Assembly (NCBI GenBank): GCA_031406795.1
Contig: JANOHV010000118.1
Location: 647-64,646 of the forward strand
Length of the DNA stretch: 64,000 bases
Direction of reading: 5' to 3'
DNA from: Candidatus Rokuibacteriota bacterium
GTDB lineage: Bacteria > JAUVQV01 > DATDCY01
Part shown: one piece after another, positions 3,528-26,537 of the stretch
How the letters are laid out: each line of letters begins with the position of its first letter
Position numbering within the stretch: the stretch's first letter is position 1
The notes under the pieces: generated by a model
Seen by the model: only the letters and a program-made list of their open reading frames with translations
What the model was told of the DNA's origin: nothing
Database searches by the model: none
Made by a program: the position numbers and the translations under genes

Positions 3528-3531
3528 CGCG

Positions 3532-4011: not shown

Positions 4012-4037
4012 TGGCTGGTCTCCTCCGCTGAGTCGGA

Positions 4038-4790: not shown

Positions 4791-5004
4791 TTCACGGTCT
4801 CTCCTTTGCGCTCCTTATTGACTCGATAAGGATAGATCATCACCATTTCAGTTTGCAACACATTTTTCATTATAACCTTATGAACTCACAATCCAAGTCA
4901 TCATGTCAATAGAATGTATGTCTTTATTCATGATGATGATTAACACTACAGGGGGCCTATGTTAATAACACATTGAAAATATTGTGATAAACGCACAACG
5001 GTTC

Positions 5005-5030
5005 GTAGGGGCGGGGTTCATCCCCGCCCG
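5005..5030. repeat. REP-like GC hairpin GTAGGGGCGGGGTTCATCCCCGCCCG (copy 1)
   Basis: Perfect stem GGGGCGGGG / CCCCGCCCC with a 4-nt loop. An identical 26-mer recurs at 39284..39309, and variants occur at 7919..7943 and 8032..8059. Confidence 0.85.
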
Positions 5031-5179
5031 AGTTAAAGACAGTTCACCGTAAACGGCCGGCAGAAAATAAACCCTCTCCCCTACGAAAAACAACGGTCTG
5101 CGGTAACACAGGAAAGATTCGCTATAGTATTGACAGTCGGAGGAGATAAGGCTCGAGCCATTTCTCGAGAACAGGATGC

Positions 5180-5297
5180 GCGAAGGGGTGGCGCGGAGGG
5201 GAGGTCTCCGTCGGCGGAACGGAGTGAGTACCCGCTCGGGGGGCATAAACACGATGGAGGTCCGCAGCGTCAGGACCCCGCAGCCCGCACGGGACCG
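5180..5297 (+). repeat. 118-bp dispersed repeat R1, copy A
   Basis: Aligns base-for-base with 16695..16812 at a constant offset of 11515, with about 4 mismatches in the core. The 5' half also matches 43051..43104. Confidence 0.9.
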
Positions 5298-5340
5298 GTA
5301 AGTTCCCTTGAACAGGCCACAAGTTCTATAATCCCGGGAA

Positions 5341-7884
5341 ATGAAGAAGTTCACCGACCTCTTCCGGCGGAAGGAACCAGATAGTCCGCAAGACTCGGCG
5401 CAGGTCTACTTCCGGGCCAAGCTGGACGCGTTCCGGCGCCTGCTCGAGCAGAACAATGCCGTGCTCGCGGCGATGGCCGACCTCGAGGAGAAGCGCTCGG
5501 GGGAGTTTCTCTTCGATCGCGCCTACCTGACCACGTCGTTCGGGTCCCTCTCCGGCGGCGTGCGCCGGATGATCGAGAGCCTGCAGTCCCTCGCCGACGG
5601 GCGGTACCCCGGATTGGTCGACGCACACGCCGCAATCGACGCGAAGATCACGGCAGCGCTGCGCGGCCCGCGTATCGATGTCGAGGGTCCCTCCATTCTT
5701 CGTCTGGCGCAGATAACCGGGGAGACGGCGCACCTGGCCGGCGGCAAGATGGCGCACCTGTGCCGCCTCGCCGCCGATCTCGCGCTGCCGGTGCCCGAGG
5801 GGTTTGTCATCACCGCCGCCGCCTTCGCGCGCTTCATGTCCCACGCCGGCATCATGGAGCGGGTGCGCGAGCGTCTCGCCACGGTGCAGATCGACGCGCT
5901 GGCGGAGATCGAGCTGGCGAGCGCGGAGATTCGCGCGCTGATCGCGACGTCTCCGTTACCGTCCGATCTCTCGGCGGCGATCGGGGACGCGGTGGCGGAG
6001 CTTGCGGGCAGCGCGGGCGGCGCCGGGCTGGCGGTCCGCAGCAGCGCGGTCTGGGAGGATGGGGAGTTCAGCTTTGCCGGTCAGTACTCGAGCTGTCTCA
6101 ACGTTCCCGCCGCGGAGGTCGAGCGGCGCTACAAAGAGGTCGTGGGGAGTCTCTTCGCGCCGCGGGCGATCTTTTACTACCGGACCAAGGGGTTCGCGGA
6201 GGAGGAGATGGCGATGGCGGTCGGCGTAATGCGGATGGTCGAGGCCCGTGCCGGCGGGGTGCTCTACACGCGCGACCCGCTCGACCCGGTTCGCGAAGTC
6301 ATGGTGATCAGCGGCGTCTGGGGGCTTGGCACGAGTGTTGTCGACGGCGCGGCTCCCGCCGACGTCATCATCGTCGATCGCGCGTCGGGCGGGATTGTCG
6401 AACGCCGCATCGCGGAGAAGTTGTCCCGCGAGGTCCTGCTCGCGAGCGGCGGCGTGCACGGCGAGCCGGTGGGGGAGGGTGAACGCGGCGCGCCCTGTCT
6501 CACCGCGGCCCAGGCCGCCGAACTGGCGCATCACGGTGCGGTCCTCGAAGAGCACTTCGGCTGCCCGCAGGACGTCGAGTGGGCGTTGGGCAAGGAGGGC
6601 CGCCTCTGGATTCTGCAGTCGCGACCGCTGCAGCTGATGGCGGCTCCCGCACCCGCGGCCATGCCGCGGCGCGTGGCCGGACGGCGCATCCTGATCGACA
6701 AGGGAATCGTGGCCTGCAAGGGCGTTGCCGCCGGGCCGGTCGCGATCGTGCGCACCGACGTGGAGGCTGCGGCCTTCCCGGCCGGCGCGGTGCTCGTCGC
6801 GCGGACCACCGGGACCGGGCTGGCCGCGGCGCTCGCCCGTGCGGCGGCGCTCGTCACTGACGTCGGATCGGCCGCCGGCCACCTGGCGTCGCTGGCGCGG
6901 GAGTACCGCATCCCTGCGCTGCTCGACACCGGGACGGCGACCGCCGTGCTCGCCGCCGGCGCGGAAGTCACGGTGGATGCCTATCATGGCAACGTCTACG
7001 AGGGCCGCGTCGAGGAACTGCTGCGGCACGCGACGAAGCGCCGCGAGTTGCTCGAGGGGACGCCGCTGCTGCTGGCGCTCGGGCGGGGGCTCGAACACGT
7101 CACGCCGCTGCATCTGGTGGACCCGAAGGCGGAAGACTTCCGTCCCGAGAGCTGCCGCACCATCCACGACATCACGCGTTTCTGCCACGAAAAGGCGATG
7201 GCCGAGATGTTCGATCTGGCCGAGGGCCGCGGCGACGGCGGCGACGAGGCGATCGCGCTGCGCGCCGGCATCCCGGTGGCGATCCACCTGCTCGACATGG
7301 GCGGCGGACTGGGCAGCCACGAGAAGAAGGTCACCCCCGAGGCGGTCCTCTCGGTGCCGTTCATCGCCTTCCTCAGAGGGATGAAGGGGATGAGCTGGCC
7401 GGAGCCGCGCGCGATCGACGCCGGGGGCCTGCTCGGCATGATGGCGCACACGGCGACCATTCCCGAGGCCGAGCTGCGCGGCACCGCCGAAAAGAGCCTC
7501 GCGCTGATCGGCGCCAACTACATGAACTTCTCGATCCGCCTCGGCTACCACTTCTCGCAGGTCGAGGCCTGGGTCGGCGATCAGCTCAACGACAACTACA
7601 TCCGCTTCTTCTTCAAAGGCGGCGGCGCGGTGCACGACCGGCGGCTGCGCCGGGTGCGGCTGATCGGCGAGATCCTCGCGAAGATGGACTTTCGGGTGCA
7701 GGTCACCGACGACGTCGTGCGCGCGGTGGCCGCCAAGTACCGCCGGGAGGATCTGGAGCGCACGCTCGAGGCGATGGGGAAGCTCACGGCCTACACCAAG
7801 CAGCTGGACATGGCGATGTTCAACGATTCGGTCACGGACTGGTACCGCGAGGAGTTCGTGCGCGAGCACCTGGGAGGGGGCTGA
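5341..7884 (+). CDS. PEP/pyruvate-binding (pyruvate,water dikinase-like) protein without recognisable C-terminal PEP-utiliser TIM barrel
   Basis: 847 aa. ATP-grasp signature AVRSSAVWEDGEFSFAGQYSS, and a swivel phosphohistidine-like segment LVTDVGSAAGHLASLAREYRIPAL. I do not recognise the C-terminal ~330 aa. Confidence 0.8.
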   Translation: MKKFTDLFRRKEPDSPQDSAQVYFRAKLDAFRRLLEQNNAVLAAMADLEEKRSGEFLFDRAYLTTSFGSLSGGVRRMIESLQSLADGRYPGLVDAHAAIDAKITAALRGPRIDVEGPSILRLAQITGETAHLAGGKMAHLCRLAADLALPVPEGFVITAAAFARFMSHAGIMERVRERLATVQIDALAEIELASAEIRALIATSPLPSDLSAAIGDAVAELAGSAGGAGLAVRSSAVWEDGEFSFAGQYSSCLNVPAAEVERRYKEVVGSLFAPRAIFYYRTKGFAEEEMAMAVGVMRMVEARAGGVLYTRDPLDPVREVMVISGVWGLGTSVVDGAAPADVIIVDRASGGIVERRIAEKLSREVLLASGGVHGEPVGEGERGAPCLTAAQAAELAHHGAVLEEHFGCPQDVEWALGKEGRLWILQSRPLQLMAAPAPAAMPRRVAGRRILIDKGIVACKGVAAGPVAIVRTDVEAAAFPAGAVLVARTTGTGLAAALARAAALVTDVGSAAGHLASLAREYRIPALLDTGTATAVLAAGAEVTVDAYHGNVYEGRVEELLRHATKRRELLEGTPLLLALGRGLEHVTPLHLVDPKAEDFRPESCRTIHDITRFCHEKAMAEMFDLAEGRGDGGDEAIALRAGIPVAIHLLDMGGGLGSHEKKVTPEAVLSVPFIAFLRGMKGMSWPEPRAIDAGGLLGMMAHTATIPEAELRGTAEKSLALIGANYMNFSIRLGYHFSQVEAWVGDQLNDNYIRFFFKGGGAVHDRRLRRVRLIGEILAKMDFRVQVTDDVVRAVAAKYRREDLERTLEAMGKLTAYTKQLDMAMFNDSVTDWYREEFVREHLGGG

Positions 7885-7892
7885 CCCCCGCT

Positions 7893-8059
7893 CCGAAACG
7901 GAACCCGTTCAACATTTTGGGCGGGAATAAATCCCGCCCCTACAGCCCGCCCGTTTTCGGGAATAGTATCCGGATGCCGGTACAGCCGGGCCGTATCCGG
8001 GAACATTATCCGGATGCCGGGATCATGGGCTGTAGGGGAGGGCTTCACGCCCTCCCGCG
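7893..8059. repeat. Composite REP cluster (two GC hairpins, nested inverted repeat, three ATCCGG(A/G) boxes)
   Basis: CCGAAACGG (7893-7901) and CCGTTTTCGG (7951-7960) flank the hairpin GGGCGGGAATAAATCCCGCCCCTAC (7919-7943). TATCCGGATGCCGG occurs at 7967-7980 and 8007-8020. A second hairpin GTAGGGGAGGGCTTCACGCCCTCCCGCG lies at 8032-8059. Confidence 0.8.
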
Positions 8060-8093
8060 TGAAATTTCGACTATCTTCGGCTACTATTCGATC

Positions 8094-8828
8094 ATGACAA
8101 ATCGCAACGACACACCGCCACCCGCTTGCAGCAAGTGCAGCGCCGTATGGCAGAAGACCGGGACGACCAACTGCTGGAGCGGCGACCCGAAGAGCGCGCC
8201 GCCCCGGCCGCCGCGCTGCCCGGTGAACGCCAACGCCGCGATGATCGAAGGGGCGTTTTCGGCGTATCTCGGCGACGGCGACGACGCGCGCCTGGCGCAG
8301 GCCGCCGCGAAGGTCGAGGGGCTCTGCTACGAGAAGACCCCGGGGACCAGCACGGTGACCGCCCGCTGGACGCGCGTCGAGGACACCGTGGCGCTGGCGA
8401 AGATCATGGGCTGGCGCAAGATCGGCATCGCCACCTGCATCGGGCTGCTCGCCGAGACCGACGAGCTGGCGAAGATCCTCGTCGCGCAGGGGCTCGAGCC
8501 GCTTTCGGTCTGCTGCAAGACCGGCAGCATCGACAAGCTGCGGCTGGGGCTCGCCGAGCAGGAGAAGATCCGCCCCGGCACCTTCGAGCCGGCCTGCAAC
8601 CCGATCGCGCAGGCCGAGCTGTGCAACCGCGCCGGCACCGAGATGAACATCATCGTCGGCCTCTGCGTCGGCCACGACATGCTCTTCACCAAACACTCGC
8701 GGGCGCCGGTGACCACGCTGGTCTGCAAGGACCGCGTCACTGGCCACAACCCGGTTGCGGTGCTCTACGGGCAGAACTTCTACTACAAGCGGCTGCAGAA
8801 AGTGCCGCTGATCATCCCCGAGCCGTAG
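8094..8828 (+). CDS. DUF1847-family Cys-rich (metal-binding) protein
   Basis: ORF 7917..8828 trimmed to ATG 8094, because the 5' part is translated REP sequence. Motifs CIGLLAETDEL, CCKTGS, CNPIAQAELCN and GLCVGHDMLF...KDRVTGHNP match my memory of DUF1847. There is no clear SD. Confidence 0.65.
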   Translation: MTNRNDTPPPACSKCSAVWQKTGTTNCWSGDPKSAPPRPPRCPVNANAAMIEGAFSAYLGDGDDARLAQAAAKVEGLCYEKTPGTSTVTARWTRVEDTVALAKIMGWRKIGIATCIGLLAETDELAKILVAQGLEPLSVCCKTGSIDKLRLGLAEQEKIRPGTFEPACNPIAQAELCNRAGTEMNIIVGLCVGHDMLFTKHSRAPVTTLVCKDRVTGHNPVAVLYGQNFYYKRLQKVPLIIPEP

Positions 8829-8840
8829 CCGGGACCGCGG

Positions 8841-11150
<2,310 letters not shown>

Positions 11151-11292
11151 ATCTCCTCCGTGTCCCGATTGGTCAGCCCTGAGTTGCGCTCCGGCGGCGA
11201 GGAAGCGTGACGCCAGGTGCCCGGCCTCCCGCCAGTGCAATGCACGCGCCGATGGGATCAGTTTCCAACCGCCGGGTGCGGAAGTCAAGGAC

Positions 11293-11357: not shown

Positions 11358-12212
11358 CTACTCTTTGACGACCAGGACCGGACAGAGGGCGTAGCCGATC
11401 ACCTTCTCCGCGACGCTCCCCATGAGCAGGCGGCTCAGGCCGGTGCGGCCGTGAGAACCGGTGACGATCATCCCGACCTCCCGCTCGCGGGCGATCCGGG
11501 TTACCACCTCGTGGACGGGGCCTTCGAGCGTCACGACCGTGCAGGGGACGCCGGCGGCGTCGGCCTTCGCCTTGACGGCGGCGACGTAACCCTTCGCTTT
11601 CGCGAGGAGTTGATCGGCGACTTTCGGGGCATCGGCGTAAGCCTCGTCCGGCAGGTCGACTACCGACAGGGCGAACAACTCCCCGCCGTACGACGCCGCG
11701 ACGTTGATCGCATGGTCGGCACCCGCGTTGCTGGTGGACGACCCGTCGGTGGCGACCAGGATGCGCTTGAAGGAGAGCGCGGTGCCCTGGGGGACGACGA
11801 GGACATCGCGGTCGGTATGCCCGATGACGCGTGCCGTGACGCTGCCGATCAGCACCCGCTCGAGCCGGCGCAGGCCGCGGCGGCCCATCACGATCAGGTC
11901 GCAGCGCTCGTCGTCGGCCAGGTGCACGATCCGCTCCCAGGCCTCGCCCTCCTCGAGCACGGTCTTCAGCGGCAACCGCTCGGCTTCAGCGAGCGCCCGA
12001 GCCCCGGCCAGGATGATCTCGCCGGGTTTGCGCATTGCCTCCCGCACGTCGCCGATGCCCACCAGTTCGAGATCGCCGTCGATGCCCGGCACGACCGTGG
12101 CCGCGGTCAGCCAGCACTTCTCGTCGCGCGCCAGGGCGAAAGACTGGATCAGCGCGTTGCGCCCGGACTCCGAGCCGTCGAGCGAAACCAGGATCTTGCG
12201 ATACTTGCCCAT
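11358..12212 (-). CDS. Tandem universal stress protein (2 UspA domains)
   Basis: ORF trimmed to ATG 12212. Two units end in the USP signatures LIVMGRRGLRRLERVLIGSVTARVIGHTDRDVLVV and MIVTGSHGRTGLSRLLMGSVAEKVIGYALCPVLVV. Confidence 0.9.
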   Translation of the reverse strand: MGKYRKILVSLDGSESGRNALIQSFALARDEKCWLTAATVVPGIDGDLELVGIGDVREAMRKPGEIILAGARALAEAERLPLKTVLEEGEAWERIVHLADDERCDLIVMGRRGLRRLERVLIGSVTARVIGHTDRDVLVVPQGTALSFKRILVATDGSSTSNAGADHAINVAASYGGELFALSVVDLPDEAYADAPKVADQLLAKAKGYVAAVKAKADAAGVPCTVVTLEGPVHEVVTRIAREREVGMIVTGSHGRTGLSRLLMGSVAEKVIGYALCPVLVVKE

Positions 12213-12216
12213 GACG

Positions 12217-13308
12217 CTAGATTCTTTCCACTGCCAGCGCGCCGGCGCTCTCGCGCAGTCGCTCCTCGCGCTTGCCCTGCCACATCGCCTTGAGGACGAT
12301 GAAGGCACCGAGGCCGAGGGCGAACATCATGATCGCGAAACTCGTGTTCGAGAGCAGCTTGCTCGTCGCGGGGCTCATCTCGCCGATCAGGTGCAGCTGC
12401 GACATGTAGACCGGCAGCATCAGCGCGCGGCTGAAGAGCACCGTCACCATGATCACGCCCATCACGAGCTTGATCATGTAGGGGCGCACGTAGGTCGTGC
12501 CGATCGCGCCGAGCTGGATGCCGAAGAGCGAGCCGGCGAGGATGATCAGCGCCAGCCGGATGTCGACCATGCCGTGCAGCGCGTACTTGAACGAGCCGCC
12601 GACGCCCATCACGAAGGCGATCACCAGTTCGGTGGCCGAGGCCATCAGGCCGGGGGCGCCGAGCACATACATCATGGCGGGGACGCCGATGAAGCCGCCG
12701 ACCGCGATCGTCGCGGCGAGCATGCCGGTGGCGAATCCGAGGGGGATCGTGAAGAGCACCGAGATGCGCGCGTTGAGGGCCTTGAAGTAGACCATCGTGT
12801 ACGGGATGTTGACCGACTGCACCCAGCGGGCGATCTTCGTGAGCTTCTCCTCGTCGTTCGTGGTGCCCGCGCGGTAGCTCTTGATCGCGTCGCGCAGCAC
12901 GAAGCCGCCGACGATCGCCAGGATCACGACGAACGCGGTGCTGACGTAGAGGTTCGAGCCGGCGTCGCCGTAGGCCTTCTTGATGCCCTCCTGGATGCTG
13001 GCGCCGTAGAGCACGCCGGCCTCGGCGGAGATGCCGAGCACGACCCCGAGCTTGACGTCGACCTGGCCGTACTTGGCGCGTTTCGTCGCGCCGACGAGCG
13101 CCTTGGGGAACTTGTGGCACATGTTGCTCGCGACCGCCATCAGGCCCGGCACGCCGAGGCTCATCATCCCCGGGGTCAGCACGAAGGCGCCGCCAGAGCC
13201 GATGAAGCCGCTGACCAGCCCGCCGACGAAGCCCATCGCGAACAGGTAGAGCACGGTCCAGAGCGAGAGATCGATGAATTGGGAAACGACCGCGACGGCG
13301 TCGTGCAT
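12217..13308 (-). CDS. TauE/SafE (TSUP) family permease
   Basis: ORF 12217..13431 trimmed to ATG 13308. Multi-TM with duplicated glycine-rich motifs GFVGGLVSGFIGSGGAFVLTPGMM and AATIAVGGFIGVPAMMYVLG. Confidence 0.85.
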   Translation of the reverse strand: MHDAVAVVSQFIDLSLWTVLYLFAMGFVGGLVSGFIGSGGAFVLTPGMMSLGVPGLMAVASNMCHKFPKALVGATKRAKYGQVDVKLGVVLGISAEAGVLYGASIQEGIKKAYGDAGSNLYVSTAFVVILAIVGGFVLRDAIKSYRAGTTNDEEKLTKIARWVQSVNIPYTMVYFKALNARISVLFTIPLGFATGMLAATIAVGGFIGVPAMMYVLGAPGLMASATELVIAFVMGVGGSFKYALHGMVDIRLALIILAGSLFGIQLGAIGTTYVRPYMIKLVMGVIMVTVLFSRALMLPVYMSQLHLIGEMSPATSKLLSNTSFAIMMFALGLGAFIVLKAMWQGKREERLRESAGALAVERI

Positions 13309-13309: not shown

Positions 13310-13555
13310 CTACTTGCCCCCCTTGCTTTTCGCGGCCTCGATGCCGAGGGCCGTCCAGAAGTTGCCGGTGAACGAGCCGTGCACGAACGAGAAGAGGAAC
13401 GCTGTCGCGATCGGCAGCAGCGCGTAGGCACCGCCCTTGCCGAAGTTCGAGTTCACCAGATCCTGCTTGAGAAAGAGCAGTGCGTACAGGCCGATCGAGA
13501 GCGCGCCCATGATGATCGCGCTGACGAGGGCTTTTTTCCTGGTTGTCGTGGCCAT
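13310..13555 (-). CDS. Small 2-TM membrane protein (TauE-associated)
   Basis: 81 aa, ATG preceded by AAGGAGA. Two hydrophobic helices. Its stop abuts the TauE start, which suggests translational coupling. Confidence 0.65.
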   Translation of the reverse strand: MATTTRKKALVSAIIMGALSIGLYALLFLKQDLVNSNFGKGGAYALLPIATAFLFSFVHGSFTGNFWTALGIEAAKSKGGK

Positions 13556-13577: not shown

Positions 13578-14219
13578 CTAGCGGGAGGTTGAAATACGGT
13601 TAACGGGCAGGCTGCTCAAAATGGTCCAGGTGCAAGACGCGCAAACCTTGAGGAATGAGGCGCACTGGTGTGCGCCGCAGTGACGAAGGGTGAAGCGCGA
13701 CGCCGCAGATGGGCCATTTTCAGCGGCCTGCCGGTCGGAGACCACTACCAGCGGGCAGGTCAAACGCTTCCAGAGGTGCGAGAGCCGCCGCTCGTCGGCG
13801 GCGCCGCAGCCGCGGTCGAGTACCCCGGCGGATTCGACGACGACGAATGAGACCTCGGGGTGCGCCCGGGTGTAGCGGACGATCTGTTCCTTGATGCAGC
13901 CGGCGCTCGAGAAGGCCCGGAAGGGTATTCCCGCCTCGGCGAGGCTCGCGAGAAACGGGGCGAGGGCGCTGCGCAGTTCCTTCTCGGGGAGGGCGCGGTC
14001 CGCGACGCACAGGACGTCGAGGCCCGCGCCGATGCGCCGGCAGGTGTTCAGGGCGTAGGTCATCGTGCGGGCCTCTCCTTCGAGTCCCCGCAGGGCGAGC
14101 AGCACGCGGCGATGCTTCCGCATCAGGCTCTGCGCGCCGCTGCGGTCGCCCTGCTCGGCGAGCGCAGCGGCTTCGAGCGCCAGCTGCGCCCGCCCGATGA
14201 CCTGCATGACCTTGTTCAT
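13578..14219 (-). CDS. USP-like (adenine-nucleotide alpha-hydrolase fold) protein; the C-terminal ~50 aa are encoded by repeat R3
   Basis: 213 aa. The core runs VLLALRGLEG...VSFVVVESAGVLD...CPLVVVSDRQ (USP-like, no ATP glycine motif seen). The N-terminus carries LEAAALAEQGDRSGAQSL. The tail RHCGAHQCASFLKVCASCTWTIL is translated repeat sequence. Confidence 0.6.
   Translation of the reverse strand: MNKVMQVIGRAQLALEAAALAEQGDRSGAQSLMRKHRRVLLALRGLEGEARTMTYALNTCRRIGAGLDVLCVADRALPEKELRSALAPFLASLAEAGIPFRAFSSAGCIKEQIVRYTRAHPEVSFVVVESAGVLDRGCGAADERRLSHLWKRLTCPLVVVSDRQAAENGPSAASRFTLRHCGAHQCASFLKVCASCTWTILSSLPVNRISTSR
13601..13728 (-). repeat. Dispersed repeat R3, long form (copy a)
   Basis: The reverse complement starts GGCCGCTGAAAATGGCCCATCTGCGGCG and ends GCGTCTTGCACCTGGACCATTTTGAGCAGCCTGCCCGTTA. 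The same termini occur at 47858-47925 (short form), 54806-54958 and 59723-59776. Confidence 0.8.
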
Positions 14220-14254: not shown

Positions 14255-14422
14255 CTAATCGGCCCGCAGCGTCAGGCGCGGCTGCGGCCGCGGACTGGGG
14301 CGTTTGGCCGCACGCTCGCCCTCACGCTGCCCGGTGAGGAGTTCGCGTGCGGTACCGTGCTCGTTTTCTTCGGCGAACGCCGCGGCCATCATCACTCGTT
14401 CGAACTTCTCGGTGATCTTCAT
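14255..14422 (-). CDS. 55-aa AFAE-motif peptide (below the ORF-track size cut-off)
   Basis: My translation is MKITEKFERVMMAAAFAEENEHGTARELLTGQREGERAAKRPSPRPQPRLTLRAD. GAGGAGG SD lies 9 nt upstream of ATG 14422, and a sigma-54 promoter lies 40 nt upstream. The motif is shared with 857..1315 and 40281..40754. Confidence 0.6.
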   Translation of the reverse strand: MKITEKFERVMMAAAFAEENEHGTARELLTGQREGERAAKRPSPRPQPRLTLRAD

Positions 14423-14460: not shown

Positions 14461-14479
14461 TTTGCAGGGGGCGTGCCAG
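14461..14479 (-). promoter_or_regulatory. Sigma-54 (-24/-12) promoter
   Basis: The minus strand reads CTGGCACGCCCCCTGCAAA. GG and GC have the canonical 12-nt register (TGGCACG-N5-TGCA). It lies about 40 nt upstream of the small ORF start. Confidence 0.7.
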
Positions 14480-14626: not shown

Positions 14627-14655
14627 TTGCAAGAACGCTGTCGTCGTTGTATTTT
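14627..14655 (+). promoter_or_regulatory. Sigma-70-like promoter candidate for the Lon/HK/RR operon
   Basis: TTGCAA, 17 nt, TATTTT; it ends 30 nt upstream of GTG 14686. Confidence 0.35.
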
Positions 14656-14685
14656 GCAATAGTGGCTTTTCCGCGGAGGTGACAG

Positions 14686-16827
14686 GTGAAGTTCTTCAGG
14701 AAAGACGGGGCAGGCGACGAAGAGCAGGACCCGACTATTCCCGAACTGCGCCTGCGCCTGGCCGCTGCGCGGTTGCCGGTCGAGGTGGAGCAGCTCGCCG
14801 ATCGGGAGCTGGGGACGCTCTCCCGCATCAATCCGGCGGCGGCGGAATTCACGATCGGCTTGAGCTATCTCGAGTATCTCGCCTCGCTTCCCTGGCAGCG
14901 CAGCACGGAAGACAACCTCGATCTCGCGCGCGCCGAGCGCATTCTGGATGAGCACCACTTCGGCCTGCGGCACGTGAAAGAGCGGATTCTCGAGCACCTG
15001 GCAATCAAAGCGCTGCGCCATCGGCGCCAGCCGCGGGTGCTCGCGGTCGACGACGACGAGACGGCGCGCCGCAACCTCGTGCTCGCGCTGGCCCGCGAGG
15101 GCTGCGAGGTCGTCACCGCGGCGAGCGGTCGCGAAGCGCTCGAGCAGTTGGAGGCGCGCGAGTTCGACGTCGTGCTCACCGACCTGCATCTCGGGCAGAG
15201 CGACGGCATGGAGCTGCTCGAGCGCACCCGGGCCCGCTGGCCCGATACGCGCGTGGTCGTCATCACCGGCTACGCCTCGATCCCGTCGGCGGTCGAGGCG
15301 GTCAAGAAGGGCGCTTTCCAGTATCTGTCCAAGCCGTTCGCGATCGAGGAGCTGCGATCGACGGTGCGGCGCGCACTCGAGGGTCGCGCGCTGCTCAAGG
15401 GGACGAAGGGCTCGGTGCTCTGCTTCGCCGGCCCGCCCGGTACCGGCAAGACTTCGGTCGGGCGGGCGATCGCGCAGGCGCTCGGGCGCTCATTCTCCCG
15501 GATCAGCCTCGGGGGGATCCGCGACGAGGCGGAGATCCGCGGCCACCGGCGCACCTACGCCGGCGCCAAGCCGGGTCGGGTGATCGAGGAGATCCGCCGG
15601 GTCGGGTCCGCCAACCCGGTACTGATGCTCGACGAACTCGACAAGCTCGGCCGCGAGGTCAAAGGCGACCCGGCCGCTGCGCTGCTCGAGGTGCTCGACC
15701 CGGAGCAGAACCGCGGCTTCCTCGACCACTATCTCGACGTGCCTTTCGATCTCTCGGGGGTGCTCTTCATCGTCACGGTCAACCTGACGGACGCCGTGCC
15801 CGAGGCGCTGCTCGACCGGCTCGAGGTGATCGAGTTCCCCGGGTACACCGAGCAGGAGAAGGCGCAGATCGCCGCGCGTTTTCTCTGCCCGAAACAGCTG
15901 CGGGAGAAGGGCCTCGGGAGCGACCAGGTGAGCTTCACGCTGGAGGCGATCGGGGTGATCATCCGCGATTACACGCGGGAGGCGGGGATCCGCGGCCTCG
16001 AACGGCGCATCGCCACCATCTGCCGCAAGATCGCCCGCGAGAGTCTCGGCGACGGCGCCCGGACCGGAGTCACCGTGACTCCCGAACGGGTGCAGGGGTG
16101 GCTCGGGCGGCGGCCGGACCGGCGCGAAGTCATGGACGGGGAGGACCGCGTCGGGGTGGCCACGGGGCTGGTGCGCACCGAGAGCGGCGGGGAGATCATC
16201 TTTGTCGAGGCGGCGAGGATGCCCGGCACCAAGGAGCTGATCATCACCGGCTCGCTCGGCGAGGTGATGCGCGAATCCGTCCAGGCGGCGCTGAGCTACC
16301 TGCGCAGCAACGCGGCGGTCTTCGGCATCGCGTCGGATTTCTTCGAGCGCCACGACCTGCACATCCACATACCGCGCGGGGCGGTCCCGAAGGATGGGCC
16401 GTCGGCCGGGCTCACGGTGCTTGCCGCGCTCGCTTCGCTGCTCACGAGGCGCCCCGCGCGCCGCGACACGGCCGCGACCGGCGAGATCACCCTCACCGGG
16501 CGCCTTCTCGCGGTCGGCGGCGTGCGCGAGAAGGTGCTCGCCGCGCGCCGGGCCGGGCTGGCGGCGGTCGTGGTGCCGGCCGCAAACCTCGCGGAAATCG
16601 AGGAGCTCGACGAGGAGACGCGGCGCGGGATCGCCATCCATACGGCGGCTTCGGCGCCCGAGGCCCTGGAACTGATCCTCCGGGAACCTGCTGGGCGGAG
16701 GGGTGGCGCGGAGGGGAGGTCTCCATCGGCGGAACGAAGTGAGTGCCCGCTCGGGGGGCATAAACACGATGGAGGTCCGCAGCGTCAGGACCCCGCAGCC
16801 CGGACGGGACCGTCATGCCCAGCCTGA
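14686..16827 (+). CDS. Atypical LonA-like ATP-dependent protease: no LAN N-domain, REC receiver inserted before the AAA+ module; last ~45 aa encoded by repeat R1
   Basis: GTG 14686 with GGAGGT SD and an in-frame TGA at 14680-14682. Lon helical region AEFTIGLSYLEYLASLPW...HFGLRHVKERILEHLAI, then REC RVLAVDDDE / VVLTDLHL / VVITGY / LSKPF. Walker A then follows (GPPGTGKTS), with DELDKLG, the Lon_C motifs PKDGPSAGL and GGVREKVLAA. Confidence 0.85.
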   Translation: MKFFRKDGAGDEEQDPTIPELRLRLAAARLPVEVEQLADRELGTLSRINPAAAEFTIGLSYLEYLASLPWQRSTEDNLDLARAERILDEHHFGLRHVKERILEHLAIKALRHRRQPRVLAVDDDETARRNLVLALAREGCEVVTAASGREALEQLEAREFDVVLTDLHLGQSDGMELLERTRARWPDTRVVVITGYASIPSAVEAVKKGAFQYLSKPFAIEELRSTVRRALEGRALLKGTKGSVLCFAGPPGTGKTSVGRAIAQALGRSFSRISLGGIRDEAEIRGHRRTYAGAKPGRVIEEIRRVGSANPVLMLDELDKLGREVKGDPAAALLEVLDPEQNRGFLDHYLDVPFDLSGVLFIVTVNLTDAVPEALLDRLEVIEFPGYTEQEKAQIAARFLCPKQLREKGLGSDQVSFTLEAIGVIIRDYTREAGIRGLERRIATICRKIARESLGDGARTGVTVTPERVQGWLGRRPDRREVMDGEDRVGVATGLVRTESGGEIIFVEAARMPGTKELIITGSLGEVMRESVQAALSYLRSNAAVFGIASDFFERHDLHIHIPRGAVPKDGPSAGLTVLAALASLLTRRPARRDTAATGEITLTGRLLAVGGVREKVLAARRAGLAAVVVPAANLAEIEELDEETRRGIAIHTAASAPEALELILREPAGRRGGAEGRSPSAERSECPLGGHKHDGGPQRQDPAARTGPSCPA
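16695..16812 (+). repeat. 118-bp dispersed repeat R1, copy B (Lon/HK junction)
   Basis: Matches 5180..5297. It provides the Lon C-terminal residues RRGGAEGRSPSAERSECPLGGHKHDGGPQRQDPAARTGP and ends 2 nt before the HK ATG at 16815. Confidence 0.9.
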
Positions 16828-18269
16828 GACGCAAGGTCTCCTATGGCTACTACGCCGTCGTGGCGCTGCTGCTGGGCCTCTCCGTTTTCGTTGTCGTCGA
16901 GCTGCGGCTGCTCGAGCGTCGCATCGTCGCCGGCGAGGCGCTTGCGGAATTCTTCGACGCCACGCTCGAGATCAGGCGCTTCGAGAAGAACTACTTCCTC
17001 TACGCCCAGGGGGAGGACCTGAACGAGAGCATGCGCTACGCCGGCCGGGCGCGTGAGCTGCTGGATCGTCACGGCGCGGCGTTCGCCGCCTTCGTCCCCG
17101 GGCCGTTGCTGGCCACGCTGCGCGACCGACTCCCCCGCTACGAGTCGCTGATGCGCCGGTACGCGGCGGCGCCGGCGGCGGCGCCCGAGCGCAAGGACCT
17201 GGAGCAGGAGGTGCGCCGCGCCGGCAAGGAGATCGTCACGCACGCCGAGGAGATCTCCGGGAGCGAGCGGCGCAGCCTGCAGGGACTGCTCGCCCGTTAC
17301 CGGCGGGGGCTGGTCGGGGCGATCGTCCTGCTCTCGGCGCTGGCGATCGCCATCGGCCAGGTCCTGGTGCGCGAGGTCGGGCGACCGCTGCGCGCCCTGG
17401 AACAGGCGCTGAACAGCGTCGCCGAGGGGCGCTACGAGCCGGTGGCGATCGGCTCGCGCGACCGCGAGATCGTCTCGCTGACCAACGCGCTCAACCGGAT
17501 GCTGCGCGAGCGCGAGCTGCACGAGCGACACCTGATCCAGTCCGAGAAACTCGCCTCGCTCGGGACGCTGCTCTCGGGGGTGGCGCACGAGCTGAACAAC
17601 CCGCTCTCGAACATCTCGACGTCGGCGCAGATCCTCGCCGAGGAGATGGGCGCCGGCGGCGGGCTCGCCGGGGAGCTGGTCGGGCAGATCGGCGAGCAGA
17701 CCGACCGCGCCCGCAACATCGTGCGCTCCCTGCTGGAGTTCTCGCGCGACCGCGAGTTCCGCAAGGAGCCGCTGCCGCTGCGCCCGCTTGTCGAGGAGAC
17801 CGTGCGTTTTCTCAAGGGGCAGATCCCGCCCGGGGTGACGGTCGAGGTGGCGGTGCCGCCCGAGGTTACGCTTCCCGGCGATCGCCAGCGCCTGCAGCAG
17901 GTCTTCCTCAACCTCGTCAAGAACGCCGTCGAGGCGGTGCCGCCGGGCGCGGGTCGCGTCGTCGTCAGCGCCCGGCGGGTGCGGCCCGGCCCGGCGCCGG
18001 AAACCGACGCGGCGCTCGTCGTGCACGCGAACGGCGGGTTGCCGGGGGGCGATGTCATCGAGATCGAGGTGCGCGACAACGGCCCGGGCATCCCGCCGGA
18101 GATCCGCAAGAAGATCTTCGACCCTTTCTTCACCACCAAGGACGTCGGCAAGGGCTCGGGGCTCGGGCTGTTCGTCGTCTACGAGATCATCGACGAGCAC
18201 GACGGCGGCATCGCCGTGGGGGAGGCCCCGGGCGGCGGGACCCTCTTCACGATCCGGCTGCCCGCGTGA
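16815..18269 (+). CDS. Two-TM periplasmic-sensing HAMP histidine kinase
   Basis: 484 aa. TM, ~150-aa helical periplasmic domain with IRRFEKNYFLY, TM, HAMP, H-box [12 protein letters not shown]-box LNLVKNAVEA, G1 DNGPGI, G2 GKGSGLGL. Confidence 0.9.
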   Translation: MPSLRRKVSYGYYAVVALLLGLSVFVVVELRLLERRIVAGEALAEFFDATLEIRRFEKNYFLYAQGEDLNESMRYAGRARELLDRHGAAFAAFVPGPLLATLRDRLPRYESLMRRYAAAPAAAPERKDLEQEVRRAGKEIVTHAEEISGSERRSLQGLLARYRRGLVGAIVLLSALAIAIGQVLVREVGRPLRALEQALNSVAEGRYEPVAIGSRDREIVSLTNALNRMLRERELHERHLIQSEKLASLGTLLSGVAHELNNPLSNISTSAQILAEEMGAGGGLAGELVGQIGEQTDRARNIVRSLLEFSRDREFRKEPLPLRPLVEETVRFLKGQIPPGVTVEVAVPPEVTLPGDRQRLQQVFLNLVKNAVEAVPPGAGRVVVSARRVRPGPAPETDAALVVHANGGLPGGDVIEIEVRDNGPGIPPEIRKKIFDPFFTTKDVGKGSGLGLFVVYEIIDEHDGGIAVGEAPGGGTLFTIRLPA

Positions 18270-18283
18270 GGGAGAGTGAGAGG

Positions 18284-19645
<1,362 letters not shown>

Positions 19646-19780: not shown

Positions 19781-19959
19781 TCTTCTTCCCCGAAGCGTCG
19801 AGGGAGGCTGGTTGAAACGGCCTCGTTGACAGCAGAAATGTCGCGCTCGCCGGATTGCACTCAGCGAACGAAAATGCCGGTATTTCCGGGTGTTCTTCGC
19901 TCGGTGATCCCCGGCCCGCCGGCCGTTGCGGCAGTCCCGGGCCTCCTCGGGGCACTGGC

Positions 19960-19975
19960 CGGCACGGAAGATGCA
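19960..19975 (+). promoter_or_regulatory. Sigma-54 (-24/-12) promoter
   Basis: CGGCACGGAAGATGCA: GGCACG-N4-ATGCA with the canonical GG/GC register. It lies 38 nt upstream of ATG 20013 and immediately downstream of the bEBP gene. Confidence 0.65.
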
Positions 19976-20012
19976 AATGCGATGGGCACAACAACCCCAC
20001 AAGGAGGGGATC

Positions 20013-20324
20013 ATGAACTTCAGGGTAAAGGCTTTGATCTTGGCCGGGGCGGTCTTCGGCGCGGCTGCGCTGATTCCGGCAGTGTCTGAGGGTCGCGGCG
20101 GAAACGTCGGCGGCCGGGGACGCTGCGGACAGGCCCAGCAGCAGTGCCGCCAGCAGAACCAGAATTGCCCGCAGGAGCACAAGCGCCTGCGCGACGGCTC
20201 GTGCGGTAACGCTGCGTGCCCCGGACCGGATGGCGGGCAGCGCGGCCCGTGCCCCGGGCCGGACGGCGGCAACCAGGGTTCTGGTGCACCGGGCGGCGGC
20301 GTCGCGCCGCCGGACATTAAGTAG
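20013..20324 (+). CDS. Small secreted Cys/Gly/Gln-rich protein (ZraP-like context, function unknown)
   Basis: ORF trimmed to ATG 20013 (AAGGAGGGGA SD). Signal peptide MNFRVKALILAGAVFGAAALIPAVSEG. The mature part has 6 Cys and an internal duplication CPGPDGGQRGP / CPGPDGGNQGS. Confidence 0.65.
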   Translation: MNFRVKALILAGAVFGAAALIPAVSEGRGGNVGGRGRCGQAQQQCRQQNQNCPQEHKRLRDGSCGNAACPGPDGGQRGPCPGPDGGNQGSGAPGGGVAPPDIK

Positions 20325-20340
20325 GCCGAGGAGCAGAACG

Positions 20341-20865
20341 ATGGGCGCCAGGTGGACGGTCGGCATCGCTCACCTGGCGCTTTTCTTTGCGCTGACGCTC
20401 CGCCCTTCCAACGTCAGCGCCGCCGGCGCGCCGGAGGGATGTGATCAGGTTCTCCCCGGATGTGGCATCTGTTACCCCGGCGGTTACGACGACAACACCG
20501 TCGGCGAAGTCCAGGGGACCATTCTCGATGTGCAGGCGCCCGCCCAGGGGCCGGTGCGCCTGGTTGTCGCCGGCGAACGTGAACAGTGGGTCGTTCTCGC
20601 CGCTCCGTTGGGTCTTCTGGAGAGCATGGCGCTGCATCTTGCTCCGGGAGCCGCGGTCACCGTGCGTGGCTCGAAGAACCTCGGCGCCGACGGTCGCCTG
20701 TACCTCGTCGCCCGTGAGATCCGCGCCGCCGGCGGGAAACCGGGCGTCGTCCTTCGGGATTGTCGGGGAACGCCCCTCTGGAGCGGCGGCTACCGCGGCG
20801 GCCGGAACCCGCTCCCGGAAAGCGCCGATTGTCGCAGCCAGGGCCTGAATGGCTGGCGCCGTTGA
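20341..20865 (+). CDS. Periplasmic OB-fold-like protein, paralogue A (resembles MamS/MamX-domain family from memory)
   Basis: ORF trimmed to ATG 20341 (GGAGCAG SD). Signal-like N-terminus, then CGICYPGGYDDNTVGEVQG, VTVRGSKNLGADGRLYLVAREI and VVLRDCRGTPLWSG. All three blocks are shared with 20884..21363. Confidence 0.6.
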   Translation: MGARWTVGIAHLALFFALTLRPSNVSAAGAPEGCDQVLPGCGICYPGGYDDNTVGEVQGTILDVQAPAQGPVRLVVAGEREQWVVLAAPLGLLESMALHLAPGAAVTVRGSKNLGADGRLYLVAREIRAAGGKPGVVLRDCRGTPLWSGGYRGGRNPLPESADCRSQGLNGWRR

Positions 20866-20883: not shown

Positions 20884-21363
20884 CTAACGTCCGCGCCGGC
20901 CGCACCCCCCGGGGCCGCAACCCGACCAGGCCGGCTTCCCCAGCAGGTCGCGCAGAACAACCGGGCCGTCCGCGCCGGGGAGGCTGATCTCCCGTGCCAC
21001 GAGGTAGAGGTTTCCATCCGCGCCCATGCTCTTCGAGCCCTTCACGCGCACGCGGTCCCCGGGTGCGAGCCTGAGCTTCCGGTCTGCCCAGTACCAGGCC
21101 GGGGCGGCGAAGACGGTGTAGATGTCGCCGCCGACCTCGAGACGAAACGAAACCGGGCCCCACTCCGGCTGGTCGAACGACGCGACGCGACCCTCCACCA
21201 CCCCGACCGTGTTGGGATCGTAGCCCCCCGGATAGCGGATGTCGCAGGCCGGGAGGTTCATCTCCGGCTCCTGCTCCTGGGCGCGGACGGCAGCCGCCGG
21301 CGTCAACGCGATCGCGGCCGCCAGCAGGAGCGGCGCCGGCCGGATCCAGGTGAATCCGTTCAT
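20884..21363 (-). CDS. Periplasmic OB-fold-like protein, paralogue B
   Basis: ORF trimmed to ATG 21363, which overlaps the RR stop (ATGA). CDIRYPGGYDPNTVGVVEG, VRVKGSKSMGADGNLYLVAREI, VVLRDLLGKPAWSG. Confidence 0.6.
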   Translation of the reverse strand: MNGFTWIRPAPLLLAAAIALTPAAAVRAQEQEPEMNLPACDIRYPGGYDPNTVGVVEGRVASFDQPEWGPVSFRLEVGGDIYTVFAAPAWYWADRKLRLAPGDRVRVKGSKSMGADGNLYLVAREISLPGADGPVVLRDLLGKPAWSGCGPGGCGRRGR

Positions 21364-22685
21364 GACAACCCGTACTCCTTGAGGCGGTATTGCAGCGTGC
21401 GGAGCGAAATGCCGAGCGTTGCGGCCGCCTTGCGCCGATTCCCCGCGCTCTCGCGCAGGACGCGTTCGATCGCCTCGCGCTCGACATCCTTGAGCTCGCC
21501 GCCGCCGCGACACTCAGCGGGGGACTCCAGGTTCAGGTGGCCGGGATCGATCTGCTCCCGCGCGAGGATGACGGCCCTCTCCACGACGTTCTGGAGTTCC
21601 CGGATATTCCCGGGCCAGGCGTAGTGCCGCAGGTCCTGCCGCGCCGCGTCCGAGAAGCGATCGACCTGTTTGCCGAACCGCGCCGAGTACCTCGCGCGAA
21701 AGAAATCCGCCAGCGGGAGGACCGCGTCCGTGCGCTCCGCGAGCGGCGGCAGGCGCAACGGAAAGACGTTGAGACGATAGTAGAGGTCCTCACGGAATTT
21801 CCCCTCGGCGACGTGCGCCTTGAGATCGCGATTCGTCGCGGCGATGACTCTCACATCCACCGGGACCGGCCGGGCGCCTCCCACCCGCTCGACGACGCGC
21901 TCCTGAAGGACCCGCAACAGTTTGACCTGCACCGATGGCGCGATCTCCCCGACTTCGTCGAGGAAGAGCGTCCCGCCATCGGCGAGTTCGAAGCGCCCCT
22001 TGCGGGCGGCCACGGCCCCGGTGAACGCGCCGCGCTCGTGCCCGAAAAGCTCGCTCTCGAGGAGACTTTCGGCGAGGGCGGCGCAATTCACCGCCACGAA
22101 GGGTTGCTCGCGACGCGGGCTCCAGGCGTGGATCACGCGCGCGAGCACCTCCTTGCCGGTCCCGCTGGCACCCGTCAGCAGGACGCTGGCCGTCGTGGGC
22201 GCGACCTCGCGCACCATAACCTGCACCTGCTCCATCGCTGCGCCGAGAAAGATGAGCTCTACCGGTGGGAAGTCCTTGCCGAGTTCCTCGGACAGCAGAT
22301 TGATCCGCGCCTCGCTCTCCGCCTCCCGCAGCGCCCGCCTCACGACCAGCCGCAGTTCGTCGGGGCTGTCGAAGGGCTTGAGCAGGTAATCGGCCGCCCC
22401 GGCTTTCATGGCCTCGACGGCGCTCTCGACGCTGCCGTGCGCGGTGATGACGATCCACCGCGCCTCGGGCCGGAGCTTTCGGCCCTCCTTGAGCAGGGAG
22501 AGCCCGTCGAGCCCCGGCATCTTCAGATCGGTGATCACCAGATCCCAGGAATCGAGCCCGAGGCGGGCCAGACCGGCCGCGCCATCGGGCGCGCTCTCCA
22601 CCCGGTGGCCCTCCGCCGCGAGGACTTCCATCAGGAAAGACCGCATCAGGGCGTCATCCTCGACGACGAGAACCGCGCGGCCCAT
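21360..22685 (-). CDS. Sigma-54-dependent response regulator (NtrC family)
   Basis: 441 aa. REC VLVVEDD / LVITDLKMPG, AAA+ GASGTGKE, ERGAFTGA, HTH AAATLGISLRTLQYRLKEYG. Confidence 0.9.
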   Translation of the reverse strand: MGRAVLVVEDDALMRSFLMEVLAAEGHRVESAPDGAAGLARLGLDSWDLVITDLKMPGLDGLSLLKEGRKLRPEARWIVITAHGSVESAVEAMKAGAADYLLKPFDSPDELRLVVRRALREAESEARINLLSEELGKDFPPVELIFLGAAMEQVQVMVREVAPTTASVLLTGASGTGKEVLARVIHAWSPRREQPFVAVNCAALAESLLESELFGHERGAFTGAVAARKGRFELADGGTLFLDEVGEIAPSVQVKLLRVLQERVVERVGGARPVPVDVRVIAATNRDLKAHVAEGKFREDLYYRLNVFPLRLPPLAERTDAVLPLADFFRARYSARFGKQVDRFSDAARQDLRHYAWPGNIRELQNVVERAVILAREQIDPGHLNLESPAECRGGGELKDVEREAIERVLRESAGNRRKAAATLGISLRTLQYRLKEYGLS

Positions 22686-22686: not shown

Positions 22687-23946
22687 TCAGACGCCGGCCC
22701 GGGGGAGCAGCAGGGTGAAGGCCGCCCCTGCCGCGCCTTCCCGGTTCTTCAGTTCGATGATCCCGCCCATGCCCTCAACCACCTTTTTCGCATACGCCAG
22801 CCCAAGCCCGGTGCCGGTCGTCCGCGTAGTGTAGAAGGGAGTGAACAACTTGGGAAGCGCCTCCGGGGCGATGCCGTCCCCCGAGTCCTCGAGCCGGATC
22901 GCAACCCGGTCGCCCTGCCGCCGAAGGCTCACGCGAAGCAGACCCGTTGCGCCCATCGCCTGAAGTGCGTTGCGGACGGCGTTGACGATGACCCGCTCGA
23001 GCTTCTCGGCGTCGGCGCGCACCCGCAGACCGGGCTCAAGATCGAATTCCACGCGGCCCTGCCAGGTATCCACCGAGGCGGCGATCGTCGACAGCAGCGG
23101 CGCGGGGTCGACATCCGCGATCGTGAAACGCTCCTCCCGGGAGAAGAGCAGTAGATCCTCCACGAGGTGCTCGATCCGCGCCACGCCGCGCAGGACCGTC
23201 GCGAGTTGCTGCGCCCGGGGGTCGGCGGCCTCCGTCCGCTCCGCGGCCAGCTGCGCGTAGCCCTTGACGCTGCCGATGGCGTTGCGGATCTCATGGGCCA
23301 GCGTCGAGGTCATCTGCCCGACCAGGGCCAGCGACTCGCCTCGCTCGGCCATGCGACGATGTCTCTCGGAGCGCGCCGCCAGAACGACGACGAGCAGCCC
23401 GCCGGCCCACAGCAGCGCCAGCACCGCGCCGACGCTCCACCAGAGCCGCCCGATGCGGGCGATCATCCGGTCGGTGTCGAAGGTGTGGAGCGCGAGGCGG
23501 AGCAGCGCCGGCGGGCCGTCCCGCTGCGGCAACAGGCGGTCGTAGAGCAGGACCGGCCGGCCGGTGCCGAGGAGTGCGCGGCGGCTCGCGGTCGGCCCGT
23601 CCGCCAGCCGGCCGAAAGCCGCGCTGTCGTCGAAGGGGCCGCCGCGCAGGTCGGGGTTAGTGTGGAAGAGAATGACCCCGTCCGTGGACGCGATCAGCGC
23701 GTAAGCCACGATCCGATCGGAAAAGAGCCGCTCGAACTGCACGACGCGGCCCTCCTCTGCCCTGAGTACCTGCTCGGCGGCGAGGGAGATGCCGCGCGCG
23801 GTGTTTTCCAGGGATTGCCCGGCCAAGGTGCGAACGGCCCGGTCGGCGAAATAGGTGGATGAGAGAATGCCGGCCGAGGCGGCCAGCAGCGCGACGATGA
23901 CCGGCAGCGTGCGGTAGGTGGCGCTGTGTGGAAGATTGGTGCGCAT
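22687..23946 (-). CDS. Membrane sensor histidine kinase
   Basis: ORF 22687..23967 begins with TTG, so I prefer ATG 23946. Two TM helices flank a periplasmic domain. H-box TSTLAHEIRNAI, N-box VIVNAVRNALQA, G1 DSGDGI, G2 GTGLGL. Confidence 0.88.
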   Translation of the reverse strand: MRTNLPHSATYRTLPVIVALLAASAGILSSTYFADRAVRTLAGQSLENTARGISLAAEQVLRAEEGRVVQFERLFSDRIVAYALIASTDGVILFHTNPDLRGGPFDDSAAFGRLADGPTASRRALLGTGRPVLLYDRLLPQRDGPPALLRLALHTFDTDRMIARIGRLWWSVGAVLALLWAGGLLVVVLAARSERHRRMAERGESLALVGQMTSTLAHEIRNAIGSVKGYAQLAAERTEAADPRAQQLATVLRGVARIEHLVEDLLLFSREERFTIADVDPAPLLSTIAASVDTWQGRVEFDLEPGLRVRADAEKLERVIVNAVRNALQAMGATGLLRVSLRRQGDRVAIRLEDSGDGIAPEALPKLFTPFYTTRTTGTGLGLAYAKKVVEGMGGIIELKNREGAAGAAFTLLLPRAGV

Positions 23947-23999
23947 CACTGCACGGGATTGTACCAACGAACCGCTCCCGCAGGCGTGCGGGTCTCAGT

Positions 24000-26475: not shown

Positions 26476-26537
26476 AAAAGGGGACAAACCCGGAAAAAAG
26501 GGACTGACCCAAGCAAAGCGGGGTCTGTCCCCTTTTT
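26476..26537. repeat. Inverted-repeat mini-element inside hsdM coding frame
   Basis: AAAAGGGGACAAACCC (26476-26491) pairs with GGGTCTGTCCCCTTTT (26521-36), 1 mismatch. Translated in frame it gives [20 protein letters not shown], between the conserved LWFL and [12 protein letters not shown] blocks. Confidence 0.7.

Follow-up and report, generated by a model that had tools for sequence, protein, structure and literature searches.

The closest described system to the one presented here is encoded by DVU3303-3305 of Desulfovibrio (Nitratidesulfovibrio) vulgaris Hildenborough, in which a response regulator (RR) fused to a Lon protease (DVU3303) is followed by a histidine kinase (HK, DVU3304) and a sigma54-dependent RR (DVU3305) (Rajeev et al., 2011, PMC3333781). 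There it was proposed to be a 'three-component system' whose protease is activated by phosphorylation. In the same work, binding of DVU3305 was found both at its own operon and at the divergent genes DVU3302-3298, coding for hypothetical, membrane and UspA proteins, and noted orthologues in Thermodesulfovibrio, Thioalkalivibrio and Dechloromonas. More recently, random barcode transposon sequencing (RB-TnSeq) gave pairwise cofitness values above 0.9 for DVU3303-3305, which act as one unit, and their phenotype was tied to the target transporter DVU3299 (Trotter et al., 2023, PMC10102598). We have analyzed a stretch of 64,000 nucleotides (nt), hereafter the window, from a genome assigned to a Candidatus Rokuibacteriota bacterium (assembly GCA_031406795.1, contig JANOHV010000118.1, positions 647 to 64,646 of the forward strand). 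It contains, at 14686..16827 on the plus strand, the coding sequence of a Lon protease with a receiver domain inside the polypeptide, here called Lon-RR, which an original prediction made from the letters alone had implied to be new.

The locus resembles the D. vulgaris system at several levels. As in DVU3303, receiver and Lon are found in one polypeptide, with a HK and a sigma54 RR adjoining. As in DVU3302-3298, there is a divergent five-gene operon with hypotheticals, a membrane transporter, a universal stress protein (Usp) and a sigma54 promoter, and the intergenic region shared by the two operons carries a site of the GTTGCA-N3/4-TGCAAC type. The closest genome relatives of the window are Nitrospirota/Thermodesulfovibrionales, in keeping with the orthologues noted in Thermodesulfovibrio. 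Cultured Desulfovibrionaceae homologues share the architecture; the nearest ones aligned were about 50% identical to the window protein, and D. vulgaris was not among the best 120 matches listed. On the grounds of architecture, synteny and regulatory motif, and since Desulfovibrionaceae have members of the family, the sequence comparisons assign Lon-RR to the DVU3303-type family, already known and genetically flagged. It departs from its DVU3303-type relatives in two features of its own clade, a C-terminal tail of 45 amino acids (aa) and drifted residues in helix alpha1 of the receiver. The novelty implied by the original prediction is thus overstated, since architecture, operon and hypothesis were published in 2011 (PMC3333781) and the family is widespread. 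Its statement that it knew of no characterised Lon with this topology still holds at the biochemical and structural level, and the literature on REC-Lon fusions that we found consists of D. vulgaris genomics work only.

Lon-RR has 713 aa, arranged as N-helical bundle, receiver (REC), AAA+ module, lid, S16 protease and low-complexity tail. The gene starts with GTG, a GGAGG Shine-Dalgarno sequence (14675-14679) lies six bases 5' of it and an in-frame TGA (14680-14682) stands two codons ahead. The short start is genuine, because the N-terminus MKFFxK is kept across the aligned homologues. Residues 1-115 (14686..15030) form the LonA-type N-terminal helical region, that is, the three-helix bundle of the N-terminal domain (NTD) plus the HxGL..VKERILEHLA helix, identified by alignment and appearing as five helices in the AlphaFold2 (AF2) models. 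The inserted REC, supported by PF00072, the AF2 fold and conservation, occupies residues 117-234 (15034..15387) and includes D122/D123, the phospho-acceptor D166, T194, Y213 and K216. Residues 244-455 (15415..16050) make up the Lon AAA+ module (Walker A at 249-257, Walker B at about D316/E317, pore-loop Y291) together with the Lon lid, delimited by Pfam, alignment and conservation. They are followed by the S16 proteolytic domain with its Ser573-Lys616 dyad at residues 464-665 (16075..16680; Pfam Lon_C and conservation) and by the low-complexity tail at residues 669-713 (16690..16824), recognised in the alignment and by a predicted local distance difference test score (pLDDT) below 50. All these segments are on the plus strand, as are the short motifs that we located in the translation: RVLAVDDDE (residues 117-125, nt 15034-15060), DVVLTDLHL with Asp166, VVVITGY (190-196), LSKPF (214-218), GPPGTGKTS of Walker A (249-257), PKDGPSAGL with Ser573 (codon 16402-16404) and GGVREKVLAA with Lys616. 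On recheck the motifs and coordinates of the original prediction (Asp166, the Ser573 codon, Lys616, the TGA at 14680-14682) were all correct.

The Pfam scan gave Response_reg (PF00072) at residues 118-227 (E 4.9e-29, profile positions 1-110 of 111), inside the interval of about 117-232 predicted for a receiver, AAA (PF00004) at 245-383 (E 1.1e-22), Lon_lid (PF22667) at 407-455 (E 5.7e-19) and Lon_C (PF05362) at 464-665 (E 3.6e-71). It found no LON_substr_bdg match (PF02190, the LAN domain) in Lon-RR, which together with the conserved short start and the upstream TGA bears out the predicted absence of LAN. PF00158 and PF02954 did not match Lon-RR either and were both present in the neighbouring activator gene. 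Among the NCBIfam models, TIGR00763 (lon) scored 659.7, in two stretches, against a cut-off of 608, the stricter NF008053 remained below its own (529 against 891), and the CpdR and RssB models matched weakly, at receiver level. In the search of solved structures, two collinear blocks aligned with LonA of Thermus thermophilus, residues 1-115 with 234-348 and 238-668 with 350-778, and LonA residues 1-233 (LAN domain and long helix) had no counterpart. Since the LonA blocks are collinear on both sides, the receiver replaces nothing; it is a clean insertion in the linker of few residues that joins the helix HxGL..VKERILEYLAV to the first AAA+ strand. Pfam and the alignment to solved LonA therefore agree with the predicted position between the N-helical region and Walker A. 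The exact insertion point is new here.

Conservation was studied in 95 Lon-RR homologues of 47-89% identity. In all of them D122, D123, D166, T194, Y213, the Walker A sequence GPPGTGKT, D316/E317, S573 and K616 are invariant, so that the Ser-Lys dyad is intact as had been claimed, and K216 is at least 90% conserved. With this diverse alignment AF2 gave a model of mean pLDDT 81.7 and predicted template modelling score (pTM) 0.72; a first run with 89 close homologues had reached a pTM of 0.35 and was discarded for inter-domain inference. In the model, residues 117-234 take the canonical (beta-alpha)5 receiver fold, with five strands and five helices and pLDDT means of 81-91 in blocks of 10 residues. 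A linker of about 3 residues joins helix 95-113 to receiver strand 1 (117-121), and another of about 9 residues joins receiver helix 5 (220-234) to the first AAA+ strand (244-248). The Lon core superposed on the NTD-less LonA protomers 6ON2, 7YUH, 4YPL and 7KSM with target-normalised template modelling scores of 0.89-0.90.

Two side observations concern the same protein. The 45-aa tail (GRRGGAEGRSPS...QRQDPAARTGPSCPA), disordered in the model, is confined to the closest relatives of the window, and its coding region overlaps the kinase start codon by 13 nt. In pore-loop 1 (residues 291-297, nt 15556-15576) the window and its closest relatives, mostly labelled Nitrospirota, have Y-A-G-A-K-P-G, whereas the solved LonA and the Desulfovibrionaceae Lon-RR clade have Y-[IV]-G-A-M-P-G; the change from Met to Lys adjoins the translocating tyrosine.

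A gene of this kind could be suspected of resulting from a chimeric assembly or from a frameshift that fused two genes, or of being a canonical lon that is decaying as a pseudogene. The contig is probably metagenomic, and the TIGR annotation of DVU3303 once read 'ATP-dependent protease La, truncation'. Against this, the best 120 database relatives (62-89% identity, about 665-700 aa) all carried PF00072 plus the Lon domains. A second search, seeded with a Pseudodesulfovibrio member, listed another 120, annotated as 'S16 family serine protease', 'response regulator' or 'endopeptidase La', and many of these came from complete genomes of cultured Pseudodesulfovibrio, Maridesulfovibrio, Paucidesulfovibrio, Salidesulfovibrio and Desulfacinum. 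Altogether more than 200 clusters at 90% identity agree in topology, in length (about 665-700 aa) and in the sequences at the junctions, and at 50% clustering about 25-30 representatives cover N-helix, REC and Walker A in one stretch. A junction-spanning query detected the insertion in 31 species-representative genomes, belonging to Nitrospirota/Thermodesulfovibrionales, Syntrophobacteraceae, Desulfobacca, Desulfobacteraceae, Desulfonema, Pseudodesulfovibrio and Dissulfurispiraceae. So many independent homologues with the same topology exclude a chimeric assembly and, with the N-terminus and all catalytic residues conserved and the TIGR00763 score above its cut-off, leave the whole idea of an artefact with practically no probability. 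Lon-RR is an ordinary member of a widespread, known family. The remaining loci returned by the junction-spanning query were ordinary LonA. They include the Thermomicrobiales matches that we inspected, which reached query residue 170 and were considered as a second insertion type; this was rejected, as they proved to be canonical full-length LonA with a slightly longer linker.

Compared to canonical LonA (MEROPS S16; Lon of Escherichia coli, Bacillus subtilis, T. thermophilus and M. taiwanensis, human LONP1), Lon-RR has in common the three-helix region of the NTD, the AAA+ module, the lid and the Ser-Lys domain, with 34-40% structure-based sequence identity to the LonA structures. It differs in lacking about 230 N-terminal residues (the LAN/PUA-like domain and the long helix) and in having a receiver of 120 residues in the linker ahead of Walker A. 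It is similar to the engineered 'AAAP' truncations used in crystallography (4YPL, 3M6A), and as modelled it is their natural counterpart plus a tightly tethered receiver. Enhancer-binding proteins (EBPs) of the NtrC1/DctD/NtrC type also carry a receiver directly N-terminal to a ring-forming AAA+ ATPase, and EBP receivers control the assembly of that ring, a precedent for the mechanism proposed below. However, the AAA+ module of Lon-RR is of the Lon clade, and the protein is not a member of the NtrC family because it has neither a domain with the GAFTGA loop nor a helix-turn-helix. Its receiver is an internal insertion, unlike the N-terminal one of EBPs, and about 35 residues fewer separate REC from Walker A than in the partner EBP, the coiled-coil linker region being absent. 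A receiver also connects two-component phosphorylation with regulated proteolysis in RssB (ClpXP and sigmaS) and in CpdR (ClpXP of Caulobacter). Both of these are stand-alone adaptors that work on ClpXP in trans, whereas the receiver of Lon-RR is covalently part of the protease, with no adaptor output domain.

We therefore read Lon-RR as an accessory, LonA-derived AAA+ protease of the DVU3303 type that doubles as a RR and is gated by the adjacent kinase, a reading in which we place somewhat better than even confidence. The membrane HK would phosphorylate two receivers in parallel. The phosphorylated sigma54 activator would bind GTTGCA-N3-TGCAAC and fire the divergent sm55-hyp-sm81-TauE-Usp operon, and the HK would also phosphorylate the Lon-RR receiver at Asp166. 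Because the receiver is tethered by linkers of only about 3 and 9 residues, phosphorylation of Asp166 is expected to alter the packing of the N-helical bundle and/or of neighbouring protomers on the AAA+ ring. Hexamer assembly, ATPase activity or the access of substrates would be switched in this way, most probably towards an active protease. The signal would then elicit proteolysis as well as transcription. The sequences show the domain anatomy, the intact catalytic residues, the conserved operon and regulatory DNA and the paralogy of the two receivers; phosphotransfer from the adjacent kinase, the direction of control and the existence of particular substrates are inferred. The evidence for phosphotransfer is indirect, namely the adjacent, translationally coupled HK gene and the alpha1 specificity residues shared with the partner RR. 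Kinase gating of proteolysis, as put forward in the original prediction, is plausible and gains indirect support from these matching residues.

The origin of the receiver bears on this reading. The REC of Lon-RR is 51% identical to that of the activator in the same operon, against 44-46% for the other NtrC-type receivers in the window. In a comparison of 28 Lon-RR receivers with 22 from partner activators, identity was 59% within Lon-RRs, 62% within partner activators and 51% between the two families; Lon-RR receivers had 37% identity to unrelated activators of the same loci. By these sequence comparisons the Lon-RR receiver is the sister paralogue of the receiver of the partner activator, a relationship that is new here, and it probably arose by duplication of the latter. 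Co-variation of the two receivers within loci was marginal in this set (53% identity within a locus, 51% between loci), with no strong co-evolution beyond shared ancestry. Such a relationship could also mean that the receiver took the place of LAN as a recognition module, forming an alpha4-beta5-alpha5 heterodimer with the activator receiver or docking the kinase, so that Lon-RR would degrade a component of its own pathway as feedback. NtrC1-type receivers dimerise via the alpha4-beta5-alpha5 face. The best solved-structure matches of the Lon-RR REC are NtrC1 (1ZY2, 1NY5), the segment alpha4-beta5-alpha5 is the most similar one between the two paralogues (alignment by eye), and the LAN substrate-binding domain is absent. 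However, a pure docking role needs no intact, invariant phospho-acceptor pocket, and the D. vulgaris Lon-RR mutants phenocopy, rather than oppose, those of the HK and the activator, even if polarity could mask an opposite effect. We regard docking as unlikely.

The five positions of helix alpha1 that reportedly dominate kinase-regulator specificity, after Skerker and Capra et al., were mapped on what we take to be Spo0F 14, 15, 18, 21 and 22. Lon-RR and partner receivers have about 3.4 of the 5 residues in common (typically IANH[VI] in both), compared to 0.8 of 5 for non-partners, and these matching residues fit a single kinase phosphorylating both Lon-RR and the activator. One kinase and two receivers with shared specificity residues make a branched system, and sink RRs are known in other branched systems. 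The main role of the receiver could then be to draw off phosphate, as a sink or competitor, and so to adjust how far the sigma54 activator is phosphorylated, beside a constitutively active, housekeeping-like protease. This we find rather improbable: it leaves unexplained the strict conservation of the insertion site and the short linkers, as well as the loss of LAN and the upkeep of the fusion across phyla, and a sink role is normally filled by single-domain receivers.

Several points weigh against the kinase-gated protease that we favour. In the clade of the window the alpha1 residues of Lon-RR (residues 126-134, nt 15061-15087) read TANLA where the partner has VANHV, with 2 of 5 identical, and judging from these residues this lineage may have seen a drift in the coupling of Lon-RR to the kinase. 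DVU3303 is the first gene of its operon, and polarity of the insertions in it could account for its cofitness with DVU3304 and DVU3305. Activation, as opposed to inhibition, is favoured only weakly, by the D. vulgaris phenocopy, which could itself reflect polarity. The AF2 model covers the monomer only, and in the literature searched we found no phosphotransfer, ATPase or protease assay on any member of the family.

Where proteolysis by Lon is regulated, degrons, adaptors or allosteric ligands are the usual explanation. In a stronger form of the kinase-gated reading, to which we give a little less than an even chance, Lon-RR would be the first AAA+ protease under two-component control in cis, with phospho-Asp166 switching assembly of the Lon hexamer or access to its pore as NtrC-type receivers do, and with one kinase launching both sigma54 transcription and a dedicated proteolysis. 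Such proteolysis might be aimed, among others, at the small conserved products of the divergent operon or at the proteins of the signalling pathway. A Lon that is a RR would in that case connect an environmental sensor kinase with protein degradation directly and covalently. Lon-RR offers a well-defined way into the question of whether two-component systems control an AAA+ protease directly. The family is common among sulfate reducers and Nitrospirota, its D. vulgaris member has RB-TnSeq fitness data, cultured isolates that carry it are available, and the present analysis supplies the insertion site, key residues (D166, S573), a likely shared kinase, the regulatory DNA and candidate co-regulated small proteins.

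The regulatory DNA was examined in the region between Lon-RR and the divergent operon. The published DVU3305 motif is GTTGCA-N3/4-TGCAAC, exemplified by ATTGCAAAATGCAACG at -28 of THEYE_A0745 (PMC3333781). The window has a putative activator-binding palindrome of this type, GTTGTATTTTGCAAT (14646..14660, plus strand), which precedes the Lon-RR start by 40 nt and the divergent sigma54 promoter by about 170 nt. It has 2 mismatches to the consensus and the match alone is not significant; the assignment takes in its position and enrichment as well. In the closest loci a palindrome likewise lies at -35 to -40, and over the 300 nt that precede Lon-RR genes across the family the motif is enriched 49-fold (3.8 per kb compared to 0.078 per kb). 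The promoter scan predicted a good sigma54 promoter, TGGCACGCCCCCTGCA (14463..14478, minus strand), that would drive the divergent operon and is conserved at about -220 in related loci. On the plus strand the scan gave no sigma54 promoter for the Lon-RR operon at up to 2 mismatches. By eye, a sigma70-like arrangement with an extended -10, TTGCAA-N17(...TG)-TATTTT, can be seen at 14630-14658 (plus strand), overlapping the activator palindrome, and also in the three related upstream sequences that were read (L001, L004, L025); the promoter scan did not call this element. A sigma70-like promoter for the Lon-RR operon is speculative, and the overlap with the palindrome in related loci would suggest negative autoregulation.

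Lon-RR is the first gene of an operon in which, as predicted, a membrane kinase and a sigma54 activator follow; gene layout and Pfam confirm both. The sensor HK (16815..18269, plus strand; transmembrane segment, sensor, transmembrane segment, HAMP, HisKA and HATPase_c) is a conserved neighbour and the presumed phosphodonor, and the sigma54-dependent RR (18266..19645, plus strand) has the Pfam domains REC, Sigma54_activat and HTH_8. The overlap is 13 nt between the HK gene and the end of Lon-RR, and 4 nt between the activator and HK genes; judging from this layout, the three genes are translationally coupled in series.

The divergent operon, on the minus strand, begins with a conserved open reading frame (ORF) for a 55-aa protein (14255..14422). 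Then come a conserved hypothetical of 213 aa (13578..14219; 166 aa in the nearest relative) and a conserved protein of 81 aa (13310..13555), hydrophobic and membrane-like by sequence reading, both conserved neighbours. Pfam gave no match for these three proteins. The last two genes code for a TauE/SafE-family anion transporter (12217..13308, 363 aa; Pfam), counterpart of DVU3299 (PMC10102598), and for a tandem Usp of likely 284 aa (11358..12212; Pfam), counterpart of DVU3298. The same five genes are called in the nearest relative, whose Lon-RR is 87% identical. The longest-ORF starts of TauE (13431) and Usp (12308) would produce overlaps; with the lengths called in the nearest relative, 363 and 284 aa, the starts fall at 13308 and 12212, which makes the operon tightly packed and free of overlaps.

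We surveyed the neighbourhood in about 30 loci of Nitrospirota and deltaproteobacterial (Thermodesulfobacteriota) lineages. The HK and sigma54 RR genes and the sm81-TauE(-Usp) genes adjoin Lon-RR in most of them. In many deltaproteobacterial loci the HK and activator genes are convergent downstream, not co-directional. The 55-aa ORF is kept in at least 15 Nitrospirota loci, with the motif KKFExxMxAAAFAEEGEFETARxIM...RKELRAD, and the gene calls of the nearest relative include it. A motif similar to part of it, AAALAEQGD, opens the 213-aa protein, and in one locus (L016) the two proteins appear fused. The 55-aa protein could be a substrate or a regulator of Lon-RR.

Elsewhere in the window, the region 2430-11288 is rich in signalling genes, among them a HAMP-containing HK (2430-3527), a GntR/UTRA regulator (4038-4790) and a PAS-PAS-PAS hybrid HK with a receiver (8841-11288); a PPDK-like protein (5341-7884) and then a DUF1847 protein (7917-8828) are also encoded there. 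On the other side of the operon, a Gly/Cys/Gln-rich ORF of 132 aa lies at 19926-20324, and a second two-component pair is found on the minus strand, with a sigma54 RR at 21360-22685 and a HK at 22687-23967. Beside this pair are two convergent paralogues, at 20230-20865 (plus strand) and 20884-21513 (minus strand), with the motif C-x-I-x-YPGGYD-x-NTVG, and one of them has weak OB-fold/DUF5666 matches. The methylase of a type I restriction-modification system (HsdM) is encoded at 25525-26949. The 3 kb or so after it, to about 29980, hold no ORF of at least 100 aa with high G+C content at third codon positions, a stretch that may be compositionally different and possibly mobile.

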